Source: a phage
Length of the DNA: 64,000 nucleotides
Direction: 5' to 3' (one strand)
Sequence record: PV467748.1
Below the pieces are notes generated by a model. That model ran no database searches. It had not been told where the DNA came from and saw only the letters and a program-made list of their open reading frames with translations. Shown here piece by piece: positions 41,154 to 45,318 of the stretch. The position numbers and the translations under genes were made by a program. Numbering within the stretch: the first letter of the stretch is position 1; each line of letters opens with the position of its first letter.

Positions 41154-41154
<1 letters not shown>
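40957..41154 (-). CDS. hypothetical protein
   Basis: 65 aa; AGGTGA SD; start overlaps the pseT stop by one base. Confidence 0.5.
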
Positions 41155-42379
<1,225 letters not shown>

Positions 42380-42414
42380 AATAATTTCCTCAAATTTTAT
42401 AATCCGTAGGAGCA

Positions 42415-42443
42415 TTATACTCTGCTCCCAAGAGTTTGTAAAC
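42415..42443 (-). promoter_or_regulatory. early promoter GTTTAC-17-TATAAT
   Basis: Consensus-like hexamers on the - strand. Confidence 0.5.
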
Positions 42444-42550
42444 TACTTTCCAAAAAGACCATGCATACACATGCTGAACACAATCCCAAAACAAAAGAAT
42501 GCGGCGCCAAATCTAACGGCATCCCAACCGCAAACACATGTCTCAATCAT
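42443..42550 (-). CDS. candidate 35-aa single-pass membrane peptide, translationally coupled to Rz1
   Basis: Hand translation MIETCVCGWDAVRFGAAFFCFGIVFSMCMHGLFGK; GAGGAG SD; ATGA overlap with the Rz1 stop. Confidence 0.4.
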   Translation of the reverse strand: MIETCVCGWDAVRFGAAFFCFGIVFSMCMHGLFGK

Positions 42551-42837
42551 TTGCACTTCTCCTCTTTTAGTCCAGAACGATAATAACATAACATAGATTT
42601 CTGGTCTTGTACATATCTTTTTACGTCATTCAACCAAATGCGATGTTCTTGAGAGTCTTCAAATGGCATACCGACCCAAGCCTTACCATCGATTACCTTA
42701 ACCTGCCACTTAACATTATGTTCGGCAATAGGTTGTGGCCATGAAGGGTGGAGTTGTTGTTTAGGCGCTACAGGAACATCCTGGGCACATCCAACTAGCA
42801 ATCCAATAGATAACATTACAACAGCCAATTTAATCAT
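42547..42837 (-). CDS. o-spanin (Rz1-like outer-membrane lipoprotein)
   Basis: Signal peptide with lipobox (LLVGC); pseT.2 position of T4. Confidence 0.7.
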   Translation of the reverse strand: MIKLAVVMLSIGLLVGCAQDVPVAPKQQLHPSWPQPIAEHNVKWQVKVIDGKAWVGMPFEDSQEHRIWLNDVKRYVQDQKSMLCYYRSGLKEEKCK

Positions 42838-43187
42838 TCTGTGATGCTCCTGAAGTCTTCTGTAAAGGAATCGAAGGACTTGTTGATTTGTTTTTCGACC
42901 AATCCTGGCTTACTTGCCACCACGTGCGCCTTCTTCGAATCTTTACGGAGCTTTTCATTTTCTACCTTAATTTTATCCATTCGGGCATTCATTTCAGTAG
43001 TGCGGAATTCAATATCAGAGTATTGACCACGAAGGTCCTCTACAGCTTCAGCGTTCTGTTTAGCTGTTTGCTGGGTTGTTTTCAGTTCTTCAGTAAGGGT
43101 ATCAATACGGCTTGATTGATACGAAATAAGACTGTACGCGCCTACTGCAATGGCTCCGGCTAAAAGGTAAATACTTAATTTAGACAT
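42834..43187 (-). CDS. i-spanin (Rz-like)
   Basis: N-terminal TM helix then charged coiled-coil; pseT.3 position. Confidence 0.7.
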   Translation of the reverse strand: MSKLSIYLLAGAIAVGAYSLISYQSSRIDTLTEELKTTQQTAKQNAEAVEDLRGQYSDIEFRTTEMNARMDKIKVENEKLRKDSKKAHVVASKPGLVEKQINKSFDSFTEDFRSITE

Positions 43188-43675
43188 TTGGTAATAATCT
43201 CGATGATGTCATCACGTGACAGGGAATTAATAAGAACCGTTTTAGGATTTTCACACTGAATTTTATACGTTTCAAACATGAAACACAATTCTTCAGCGGT
43301 ATGGTAAGGACTTGAAATGCCAAGGCGATTAAACTTGTCGCTTAATGGGTCACAAATCAAATAGAACGTGATGCCTGAGATTTTAACATTAGGCTGGCTG
43401 ATGTTAATGAATACCTCGGCATCGTATTTGGAAAGGTTGTTTTGGAGAAACTCGACCATAGAGTTAACAGCTTCCGGCATGGCTTCACGCTTTTCTTCTG
43501 CATAACGGGTAGAGTATTCTTTTTGCTTAATTTTCTTTTTAGCATTTTTGGCTAAAGTAACACGAAGATCGGTCAGGTAACCTACTGCACGAGAACCTTT
43601 AAAAACTTGGATGCCGTCAGTAGAGTCACCAAAAGCCTTAACAACCATTTCGTTAGTAATCATTTGCATATTCAT
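43175..43675 (-). CDS. alc: Alc-like protein (host transcription inhibitor), assigned by synteny
   Basis: About 166 aa from an internal Met after AGGAG SD; sits between the spanins and rnlA as T4 alc does. Confidence 0.55.
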   Translation of the reverse strand: MNMQMITNEMVVKAFGDSTDGIQVFKGSRAVGYLTDLRVTLAKNAKKKIKQKEYSTRYAEEKREAMPEAVNSMVEFLQNNLSKYDAEVFINISQPNVKISGITFYLICDPLSDKFNRLGISSPYHTAEELCFMFETYKIQCENPKTVLINSLSRDDIIEIITKCLN

Positions 43676-43704
43676 TTGTTTTCTCCTCATTAGTTGGTAA
43701 GTCT

Positions 43705-43733
43705 ATACTAACACATCATGAGGAGATGTAAAC
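43705..43733 (-). promoter_or_regulatory. early promoter (GTTTAC-17-TAGTAT)
   Basis: Member of the repeated cassette family. Confidence 0.45.
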
Positions 43734-44881
43734 TACTCTACCACAATTTCTTTCAAATATTTTTCAGGGATTTGGGCTTTGTGGTTTTTCAAGAACACAG
43801 AGTTAATCTGGTCTACAACCATATCATAATTAATACCGCCTACGTACGCCTGCATAAGAATAGAGAACAGCCCTGGGAAGTCCTTAAGGATTAATTGACC
43901 TGTAACGGCGTAGTCCTTACGGTCACGACCCTTGAGCTGAGAATATGCTGCTTCTAACAAGGCCAATGATTGTTCTAGGTAATCTAAATGGATACGTTCA
44001 AAGGCATCGATTTTCTCGATAGCAAACGAATCCGTACTGAACAATCCACGAAGGTCATCGGTTCCACCTGCAACTACAACTTCAAACAAACGTTCGTTAT
44101 TGTTAATGGAATCCTTGGTATGATGCAGTGCACTGTACCAGGCCGTTTTGAGTTTAAAGAACGTACCATCTTTCAGTACAAAGATGAAACCTTCAATACC
44201 CTCTTGTTTACGGATGTTTTCTACGAAATCACCCTCAGTAAGGTCATAACTTTCAACCAAATGCTTACGCAACGCAGCGTCCTTAAACAGTTCAGCATAC
44301 GGAATATATTCACCTGTTTCATTATTACGAACGTTCAACAGGATAAGATTTGTTTCTTGGTAAGCCAGCACGATACGGTTGGTAGGTGCTACATATTCAA
44401 GGTTGCAGGTGTACCCTGCTTTGGTGATTTCTTCCAGTCGAGCAGCGAAGGCCTCGTTTTCAGGGAGACGAAGGAAACGTAAAGAATCATGTACCATTGA
44501 TGAATGGATAGAACCTTTAGATTTAACAGAAAGATACTGTCGGTCCATGAATGTAGAAATCAGAGAACCGTCTTCCTTAGCCATTACGAGGTCGATATTT
44601 TCCGGCGACAAATCCAGACCGATAGTCATAGGGTTTTCGTCGAGGTTAAAGAACTTTTGCATAGGACGAGCAGCAATACGTACCGGACCGTTCTCGTCCA
44701 TTTCAAACATAATGCCTCGGCACTCTAGTGCGCCGTCTTCCAACCAATCACTGTACGATGCATAGTTATAACTAAAGATGCGATAGTTGACTCCTAGCGC
44801 ACTCTGAAAGTCTTTAAAGAAGAACTTAGATTTAGTCGAGTTTTTAACCAGGGCCATCAAGTTATCATATAATTCAATCAT
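43733..44881 (-). CDS. rnlA: RNA ligase 1
   Basis: 382 aa; strong similarity to T4 Rnl1 (YRIFSYNYASYSDW, ALECRGIMFEMD). Confidence 0.92.
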   Translation of the reverse strand: MIELYDNLMALVKNSTKSKFFFKDFQSALGVNYRIFSYNYASYSDWLEDGALECRGIMFEMDENGPVRIAARPMQKFFNLDENPMTIGLDLSPENIDLVMAKEDGSLISTFMDRQYLSVKSKGSIHSSMVHDSLRFLRLPENEAFAARLEEITKAGYTCNLEYVAPTNRIVLAYQETNLILLNVRNNETGEYIPYAELFKDAALRKHLVESYDLTEGDFVENIRKQEGIEGFIFVLKDGTFFKLKTAWYSALHHTKDSINNNERLFEVVVAGGTDDLRGLFSTDSFAIEKIDAFERIHLDYLEQSLALLEAAYSQLKGRDRKDYAVTGQLILKDFPGLFSILMQAYVGGINYDMVVDQINSVFLKNHKAQIPEKYLKEIVVE

Positions 44882-45291
44882 TGCTTTATCCTATGTTGAG
44901 TATTCCAAGGTGGATTAAATTTCTTTATGAACATTGGCTCTTCAAGAGACATGGTCTCAACTGACATAGTTCCAAGTTCGTTAGTCATCGACAGATTAAA
45001 GCACTGCCGTGCATAGAACTCCACCTTTTTACCTGCCATTAATGCTTCATGAATCAGAATGGACTTAGTCGAATCTGACGTTTGGTCCTTACGATTAATA
45101 GCTGTACGGTAGTAGTTGATGCGCTTACGAAGATTTTTAGTCTTCCCGACGTAGACTAGTATATCATCAACCGCTATAGCATATATGACATTTTGTTTAT
45201 TTGGTACTGTGAGTGGAGCTATGGTGGCGTCATCTTGGAGTTCTAGGGTGACGTACTTGATAAAGCTAAATTCGTCTGCGATTTCTTTCAT
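44878..45291 (-). CDS. denA: endonuclease II (GIY-YIG)
   Basis: Start at MKEIADEFSFIKY; near-identical to T4 EndoII (VIYAIA...YVGKTKNLRKRINYYR). Confidence 0.9.
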   Translation of the reverse strand: MKEIADEFSFIKYVTLELQDDATIAPLTVPNKQNVIYAIAVDDILVYVGKTKNLRKRINYYRTAINRKDQTSDSTKSILIHEALMAGKKVEFYARQCFNLSMTNELGTMSVETMSLEEPMFIKKFNPPWNTQHRIKQ

Positions 45292-45299
45292 AGCAATAA

Positions 45300-45313
45300 G
45301 GGGCCGAAGCCCC
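45300..45313 (-). terminator. stem-loop / putative terminator after nrdB
   Basis: GGGGCC-GA-AGCCCC. Confidence 0.45.
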
Positions 45314-45318
45314 ATTCC

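Follow-up and report, generated by a model that had tools for sequence, protein, structure and literature searches.

The stretch of phage DNA analysed here (sequence record PV467748.1, 64,000 nucleotides, called the window in what follows) carries on its minus strand, at positions 42443..42550, a small open reading frame (ORF) of 35 codons plus a TAG stop codon, which lies just 3' of the gene for the o-spanin and is almost certainly a real protein-coding gene. The nearest relatives of this region are the Dhakavirus (JS98-type, T4-like) coliphages, with 93-95% nucleotide identity, and all genes of the region are encoded on the minus strand. The gene string is headed by a homologue of alc (43175..43690, recognised from the annotation of relatives and the ORF list), followed by the homologue of pseT.3, coding for the i-spanin (42834..43187, 117 amino acids; phrog_739, E 8.2e-36, and the relatives' annotation), and by that of pseT.2, coding for the o-spanin lipoprotein (42547..42837, 96 amino acids; phrog_812, E 2.4e-43, annotated in relatives as Rz1 or Rz-like spanin). 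The small ORF, which matches phrog_23289 and codes for a predicted single-pass membrane microprotein, comes next, and downstream of it lie a gene for a protein of 106 amino acids (42059..42379; phrog_2364, a family labelled as of unknown function) and pseT (41154-42062). We interpret the small ORF as a swappable, horizontally mobile accessory gene whose product is probably not part of the spanin machinery.

The small ORF starts at the ATG 42550-42548 and ends at the TAG 42445-42443, and its 35-residue product reads MIETCVCGWDAVRFGAAFFCFGIVFSMCMHGLFGK, with MIETCVCGWDAVR as its tryptic peptide. The stop codon of the o-spanin gene (TGA, 42549-42547) shares the tetranucleotide ATGA (42547..42550) with this start, the minus-strand sequence at the junction being ...AAAGAGGAGAAGTGCAAATGATTGAG..., and a Shine-Dalgarno (SD) sequence, GAGGAG (42564-42559), precedes the ATG with a spacer of 8 nucleotides and sits within the final codons of the o-spanin gene (KEEKCK). 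The position of the ORF, its SD sequence and its overlap with the o-spanin gene had all been proposed in an original prediction made from the window alone, and our re-examination recovers each of them at the coordinates just given. The same prediction held the ORF to be translationally coupled to the o-spanin gene; the sequence features expected for this are in place, and initiation may be either coupled or driven by the SD sequence. ATGA overlaps also occur at the pseT.3/pseT.2 and phrog_2364/pseT junctions and represent the usual gene packing of this region, so that coupling alone is no argument for a shared function. The motif GAGG(A/G) is retained in every T4-type copy of the small ORF but that of phage 005, which lost it by deletion. 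A 48-residue version starting from an upstream ATG at 42589 was rejected, as the extension runs into an in-frame stop codon in 8 of 23 copies, which identifies the ATG of the ATGA as the conserved start; a homologue search with this extended ORF yielded no candidate. In phage vB_EcoM_005 (locus L015, 1501-1796), the deletion shortens the o-spanin after about residue 63 and still yields an ATGA junction with the small ORF; this o-spanin would lose both essential C-terminal cysteines, and either the assembly is in error here or the phage is spanin-defective.

We gathered 25 copies of the small ORF, 23 from annotated records and IMG/VR (the window included) and two from metagenome contigs, which comprise 23 different nucleotide sequences coding for 18 different peptides. 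Conservation among relatives, by which the original prediction could be judged, is complete as regards the frame: the sense frame is open in all 23 distinct versions, the other two sense frames in none, and the three antisense frames in 15, 18 and 0. Length varies between 34 and 35 codons, with all indels in frame, and the variable alignment columns (out of 35) number 14, 16 and 31 at codon positions 1, 2 and 3, respectively. The median pairwise ratio of nonsynonymous to synonymous substitution rates (dN/dS) is 0.21. Over the same phage pairs, the mean synonymous and nonsynonymous differences per site (pS and pN) are 0.48 and 0.157 for the small ORF and 0.39 and 0.126 for the o-spanin gene, that is, pN/pS values of ~0.33 and 0.32; to judge from these ratios, purifying selection on the small ORF is as strong as on the adjoining o-spanin gene. 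The open frame, the codon-position bias and the synonymous bias together effectively exclude a chance ORF, an antisense gene or an RNA element as the source of this conservation. In particular, an antisense ORF of 40 amino acids (42461-42583, plus strand) is ruled out by the codon-position pattern and is closed in 8 of the 23 versions. An apparent truncation in phage CUA3, in which only residues 23-35 were matched, turned out to stem from a stretch of N in the assembly, and the gene is not disrupted.

The single transmembrane helix announced by the original prediction is also predicted here: the best Kyte-Doolittle mean over 19 residues is 1.84 in the window peptide and ranges from 1.84 to 2.52 across all 18 peptide variants, and AlphaFold2, run on the single sequence, models one continuous helix from residue 3 to residue 33 (mean pLDDT 83.8). 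The position-independent sum on the Hessa scale goes from -2.5 to +1.8 kcal/mol across variants. Fourteen positions are invariant (M1, E3, C5, G8, F19, C20, F21, G22, I23, C28, G31, F33, G34 and K35). Three of them (E3, C5 and G8) lie in the N-terminal tail, where W9 and D10 are usual; the first 10-13 residues are acidic (E3, D10 and often D7), and K35 is the sole C-terminal charge. The product is thus probably, as far as these models go, a bitopic inner-membrane microprotein of 35 residues, for which the positive-inside rule and the analogy with the Pf3 coat protein would suggest an N-out/C-in topology; in this orientation the invariant Cys5 would face the oxidising periplasm. The peptide has no lipobox and no signal peptide before Cys5, it shows no homology to i-spanins, o-spanins or u-spanins (phrog_23289 is its only match, with none in Pfam), and it is too short for a periplasmic coiled-coil domain. 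It also lacks the charged C-terminal domain of holins, having one transmembrane domain and a C-terminus made of a single Lys.

The match to phrog_23289 (PHROGs v4, labelled as of unknown function) covers residues 1-35 against profile positions 1-35, with an E value of 1.5e-15 and 57.9 bits. The product of the small ORF is a member of this family and does not differ from it in any respect; as the family has no characterised member, it is silent on mechanism. In tblastn searches, the peptide is found at full length in 88-91 phage records with 57-100% identity, and ~90 of the 1442 records with a PseT.2 relative carry it. Its annotation is inconsistent. It appears as a "hypothetical protein" in LHE83 (WEY10244.1), CLB_P2, MX01, NC-G and ABTNLsp5, and it is missed in the RefSeq record of JS98 and in KIT01, SP18, VR25, UGJNEcP4, EAWsc9, phage 212 and two podoviruses of the genus Kuravirus; the claim that the ORF is unannotated is therefore correct for part of the relatives and not for those five, nor for the PHROGs catalogue. 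Phmmer, run exhaustively against 1.84 billion representative proteins, retrieved a single true cluster, P0001 (34 amino acids, an IME341-type variant), together with a spurious match to a repetitive 669-amino-acid protein, and revealed no distant relatives. Profile-guided scans recovered only isolate genomes already known in IMG/VR, two contigs in metagenomes, both with the same T4-type context, and nothing in GTDB genomes. A scan of plasmids gave only three chance-level Sinorhizobium matches (E = 1), and complete Escherichia coli genomes gave no match. The 35-residue peptide has no match in Pfam, NCBIfam, PADLOC or PDB either, and none to the defence or anti-defence models of PADLOC and NCBIfam at E values up to 10. 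Across these searches, the family is confined to Dhakavirus, Gaprivervirus and the two Kuraviruses. Searches of the literature turned up nothing on this ORF and nothing on the function of pseT.1, a gene found at the same place in other phages (see below). The small ORF belongs to a catalogued but uncharacterised family, and its novelty is modest.

The two Kuravirus podoviruses, 172-1 and NJ01, carry the small ORF with 74% amino acid identity to the window, in an unannotated gap among small leftward ORFs and with a GAGG SD sequence of its own. In 172-1, the holin and endolysin genes are located at 24.3-25.0 kb, the Rz-like spanin gene at 43.7-44.0 kb and the small ORF at 76.2 kb, hence ~32 kb from the spanin gene and, counting around the record ends, ~25 kb from the holin and endolysin genes. 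In an alignment of four Kuraviruses, the small ORF is a 117-nucleotide indel present in 172-1 (L017 957-1073) and NJ01 (L019 3001-3117); the two phages without it (L042 and L043) have flanks across the junction that closely resemble those of the carriers. Phages without the insert read ...TTGAGGTTAATATG, directly followed by TTCAAG..., in which the next gene begins at the ATG. Carriers read ...TTGAGGTTAAyATG, then the small ORF, then TAGTTGAGGTTAACTATG, again directly followed by TTCAAG.... The comparison implies that the ribosome-binding site (RBS) and start codon (TTGAGGTTAAyATG) are duplicated on both sides of the insert. Between Kuravirus and T4-type copies, pS is 0.65-1.08, a saturated value, and pN is 0.07-0.25. 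Contamination or chimeric assembly is excluded for the Kuravirus copies by their saturated synonymous sites and by their Kuravirus flanks with the duplicated local RBS. Saturated pS with low pN shows selection at the protein level after the gene had moved between unrelated phage lineages. It moved as a single-ORF cassette between these lineages of coliphages, one of myoviruses and one of podoviruses.

At the T4-type locus itself, the place occupied by the small ORF is a variable slot. In the T4-type loci L010-L014 and in the Mosigvirus-type locus L009, the same ATGA starts an unrelated gene, pseT.1, which codes for a soluble protein of 72-76 amino acids (phrog_2347), and in L009 pseT.1 ends at the same TAG-GTTTACA promoter-like sequence as the small ORF. 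The shared ATGA and promoter boundary make the 35-codon ORF and pseT.1 alternative cassettes between fixed boundaries. T4 PseT.1 resembles our peptide in its slot, in the ATGA shared with the pseT.2 stop codon and, in T4-type loci, also in its first two codons, ATG ATT; it differs in being soluble and charged and has no sequence similarity to the 35-residue peptide, which matches only phrog_23289. The two are positional alternatives and not homologues. The 64-kb window contains no pseT.1 homologue. Jiaodavirus has a PseT.1-like ORF placed 10 nucleotides past the o-spanin stop codon, Bragavirus has a soluble ORF of 70 amino acids in the slot, and Roskildevirus and Ishigurovirus have only a hairpin-like sequence followed by unrelated genes.

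A second tiny hydrophobic ORF occupies this slot in Gelderlandvirus (CGG4-1, S16 and SEA1), Moonvirus (Merlin) and Karamvirus (CkP1). It codes for 22-23 amino acids (MDPLVVLIxCVTxY...KL; for example M(M)DPLVVLIICVTVYYTVKLFTK and MDPLVVLILCVTFYKICKLAMR) and lies at L045 988-1059 in CGG4-1, L050 501-572 in S16, L053 501-572 in SEA1, L051 501-569 in Merlin and L052 504-572 in CkP1. Its ATG overlaps the o-spanin stop codon as ATGA in Gelderlandvirus and shares one base with the o-spanin TAA in CkP1; in Merlin, the annotated o-spanin coding sequence overlaps the ORF by 13 nucleotides. The peptide is kept despite many synonymous changes, and the ORF is mostly unannotated, gp141.1 of S16 having been called in a different, non-conserved frame that is truncated in SEA1. 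With the 35-residue peptide it has in common the slot, the tiny size, the hydrophobic character, the acidic N-terminal end and the basic C-terminal end. It differs in being shorter, equally uncharacterised, and followed by a GC-rich hairpin with a short T-tract, GGGCTTCGGCCCTTT, instead of a promoter-like site. Homology between the two slot peptides is not detectable (hhalign probability 0.75%).

Two T4-early-type promoter-like sites, both of them consensus matches only, frame the genes from alc to the small ORF. The first, at 43705..43733 (minus strand; GTTTACA, a 16-nucleotide spacer and TAGTAT), is located upstream of alc and is a putative promoter of alc, pseT.3, pseT.2 and the small ORF. 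The second, at 42414..42443 (minus strand; GTTTACA, a 17-nucleotide spacer and TATAAT, 11 of 12 positions), begins with a G that is also the final base of the small ORF's TAG, and it bounds the swappable slot on the 3' side; the site after pseT.1 in L009 is nearly identical, with two substitutions between the hexamers. By the same kind of consensus search, the late-promoter motif TATAAATA does not occur between 42300 and 44950, and no MotA-box pattern was found between the two early-type sites. With this arrangement, alc, pseT.3, pseT.2 and the small ORF are likely to be transcribed together and early. A hairpin with an 8-bp stem (GGGAGCA...TGCTCC(T)) at 42407..42430 on the minus strand, with the -10 hexamer TATAAT in its loop, has a minimum free energy of -13.7 kcal/mol (z -2.3) and is almost unchanged in every Dhakavirus-, Gaprivervirus- and Mosigvirus-type locus seen; it could stabilise the 3' end of the upstream transcript or be a site for its processing.

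Between the promoter-like site that follows the small ORF and the phrog_2364 gene, many relatives have an extra ORF of ~160-172 amino acids (MTLRDNSFVAKPEYIS...), found at L001 1672-2154 in KIT01, L020 936-1433 in CLB_P2 and L021 972-1454 in MX01. The window (42379 to 42443), LHE83 and IME281 are without it, which accounts for a gap of ~456 bp in the megablast matches. Further upstream on the minus strand, rnlA (43733-44881) is preceded by an ORF of 145 amino acids (44878-45315) placed between nrdB and rnlA; it has a GIY-YIG-like motif (IYAI...VYVGKT..LRKRI), looks ordinary and presumably occupies the place of denA (endonuclease II) on the T4 map.

Taking these data together, we favour, with a probability of roughly 60%, the reading that the small ORF is transcribed early, is translationally coupled and codes for a single-pass (probably N-out) microprotein of the inner membrane, that it is a swappable and horizontally mobile accessory gene, and that its product probably works by packing its helix with itself or with an inner-membrane target. 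The peptide would be made early, from the alc-pseT.3-pseT.2 transcript, by coupled or SD-driven initiation. Its single helix (approximately residues 14-33) would then insert into the inner membrane, leaving the acidic N-terminal tail in the periplasm and K35 in the cytoplasm, and would act by contacts between helices, its partner being a second copy of itself or an inner-membrane protein of the host or the phage. The invariant residues F19-C20-F21-G22-I23, C28 and G31-x-F33-G34 are the candidate contact surface. The peptide would thus be a dispensable accessory factor, involved in the interaction with the host, and not a part of the spanin machine.

Several points weigh against this interpretation. 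The evidence for translation, membrane insertion, topology and function is all indirect, and our searches of the literature turned up neither Ribo-seq nor proteomics data on these phages. The window variant is the least favourable of all on the Hessa scale, at a marginal +1.8 kcal/mol, and the topology rests on few charges. The promoter calls are consensus matches, and a general scan found no more sites than in shuffled sequence. Only two Kuraviruses carry the small ORF, and they are closely related and come from related hosts and sources. Finally, the recurrence of an apparently unrelated 22-residue hydrophobic ORF in the slot of three genera hints that the position beside the o-spanin gene may matter, although the presence of two apparently unrelated micro-peptides at one junction could also result simply from an abundance of small hydrophobic ORFs in T-even accessory regions.

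This last point leads to an alternative also put forward in the original prediction, which deduced from the placement in a "spanin operon" that the peptide takes part in lysis timing or envelope function. In this scheme, an inner-membrane peptide lying beside the i-spanin would tune disulfide isomerisation, the maturation of the spanins or the moment at which the membranes fuse, and Cys5 could interact with the essential cysteines of the o-spanin. The small ORF does adjoin the o-spanin gene, with the ATGA overlap, in all T4-type copies collected, and the 22-residue ORF takes the same place in Gelderlandvirus, Moonvirus and Karamvirus. The peptide shares with the spanins the gene string, probably the transcript, and the envelope as location, it is predicted to be membrane-bound with an invariant Cys in a probably periplasmic tail, and, like PseT.2, it has conserved cysteines, the two C-terminal ones of T4 PseT.2 being essential (PMC6139136). 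Yet T4 PseT.3 and PseT.2 need no other protein to complement a lambda Rz/Rz1 double amber mutant (Kongari et al. 2018, PMC6139136), so that the spanin pair works without a third component, and most phages with this spanin family lack the peptide: T4, Mosigvirus and Jiaodavirus have the soluble PseT.1 instead, and Roskildevirus and Ishigurovirus have no comparable ORF. Nor is the ATGA overlap specific to this junction, as overlaps of this type are generic in the region.

The alleles of the peptide and of the spanins provide an independent view of the same question. Carriers of the small ORF have two spanin allele types, between which the i-spanins are ~35% and the o-spanins ~65% identical, and the i- and o-spanin types always switch jointly (L016, L018, L022, L027, L028 and L040 versus the window and L001-L008). 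The identities of i- and o-spanins are accordingly correlated (Spearman 0.82), whereas the identity of the peptide is not significantly correlated with that of the o-spanin or the i-spanin (Spearman 0.13 and 0.14, respectively). MX01 and SP18 even have identical peptides beside different spanin types, their i-spanins being only ~35% identical. To judge from these comparisons, alleles of the small ORF recombine independently of the spanin alleles. With, in addition, the Kuravirus copies lying ~32 kb from the spanin gene, a function in spanin action or lysis seems unlikely to us. The lysis-timing role deduced from gene order is hence not supported, the slot being variable, the alleles not co-varying, the Kuravirus copy distant and the T4 pair self-sufficient. 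A wider envelope function gains nothing from the operon placement either, and it is the 22-residue hydrophobic ORF in the same slot of three genera that leaves an envelope-related role some low probability. As for other lysis genes, no endolysin was found among the ORFs of 39.5-45.5 kb.

A different possibility is that the peptide perturbs the membrane by itself, as a type I toxin or a pinholin does: as an oligomer it would depolarise the inner membrane or make it permeable, without the need for a specific partner, and could in this way contribute to host shut-off, superinfection exclusion or the triggering of lysis. Its size and single helix recall the small membrane toxins of 19-50 amino acids, and small residues recur at heptad spacing (G8; G15, replaced by Ala in some; G22; S26, replaced by Thr in some) and in G31-x-x-G34, which could aid self-association. 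Portability between unrelated phages also fits a function free of partners. Against this, the peptide has a single C-terminal Lys in place of the terminal charge cluster typical of holins and of many type I toxins, the apparent promoter is of the early type, at a stage when premature depolarisation would be costly, and there is no toxin or holin homology in Pfam, NCBIfam, PADLOC or PDB. We consider this explanation improbable as well.

Alternatively, and in a more speculative vein, T-even-type phages might reserve the site directly after the o-spanin stop codon for tiny inner-membrane peptides. These would be an optional and previously unrecognised third component in disrupting the envelope and might, for instance, restrain or time the fusion mediated by the spanins. 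At least two apparently unrelated families occupy the site, the 35-residue one (FCFGI...GxFGK) in Dhakavirus and Gaprivervirus and the 22-residue one (MDPLVVLI) in the three genera mentioned above, and the Kuravirus copy would be a secondary capture. We regard this idea as doubtful.

Least of all do we believe that the ORF is a chance or relic frame and that its conservation is due to an antisense frame, an RNA element or DNA close to a promoter. ORFs of such small size are frequently spurious, several annotation pipelines omit this one and the codon-for-codon antisense frame is open too in the window and in Kuravirus. Yet all 23 versions keep the sense frame open, compared with 15 and 18 for the antisense frames, and variation gathers at sense position 3, equivalent to antisense position 1. 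Synonymous sites have reached saturation, the peptides still being 57-100% identical, and a podovirus acquired the ORF independently with its own RBS, which makes a lack of function very improbable.

We thus return to the mobile accessory microprotein as our preferred interpretation. That an inconsistently annotated, tiny phage gene proves real, selected and probably membrane-inserted is a modest result when taken alone. The locus adds to it a clean allelic replacement of cassettes at a fixed operon junction, occupied by PseT.1, the 35-residue peptide or the 22-residue peptide, and the transfer of a single ORF between myovirus and podovirus lineages with duplication of the RBS. The Kuravirus indel, furthermore, provides natural near-isogenic phages that differ by a 117-nucleotide cassette, which 172-1 and NJ01 have and pEC-N1203-2Af.1 lacks. 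If the peptide targets an inner-membrane protein of the host or a defence system, it would join the few phage microproteins with known function; if it modulates spanins, it would be a new component of a lysis pathway thought to be complete.

Among known systems, the spanin pair, PseT.1 and the 22-residue ORF are neighbours or positional counterparts of the peptide, and the closest parallels in architecture come from elsewhere. None of these, namely the Pf3 coat protein and the regulatory microproteins MgtS, AcrZ and MgrB, has a sequence relationship with it in Pfam, NCBIfam, PDB or the 1.84 billion representative proteins. The Pf3 coat protein, which is inserted by YidC in an N-out/C-in orientation, has a similar layout of charges, with an acidic N-terminal tail and a basic C-terminal end, a likeness that is architectural only. 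MgtS, AcrZ and MgrB, with 30-50 amino acids and one helix, match it in size and in general build, and it is plausible that the phage peptide, like them, packs against a larger membrane protein.

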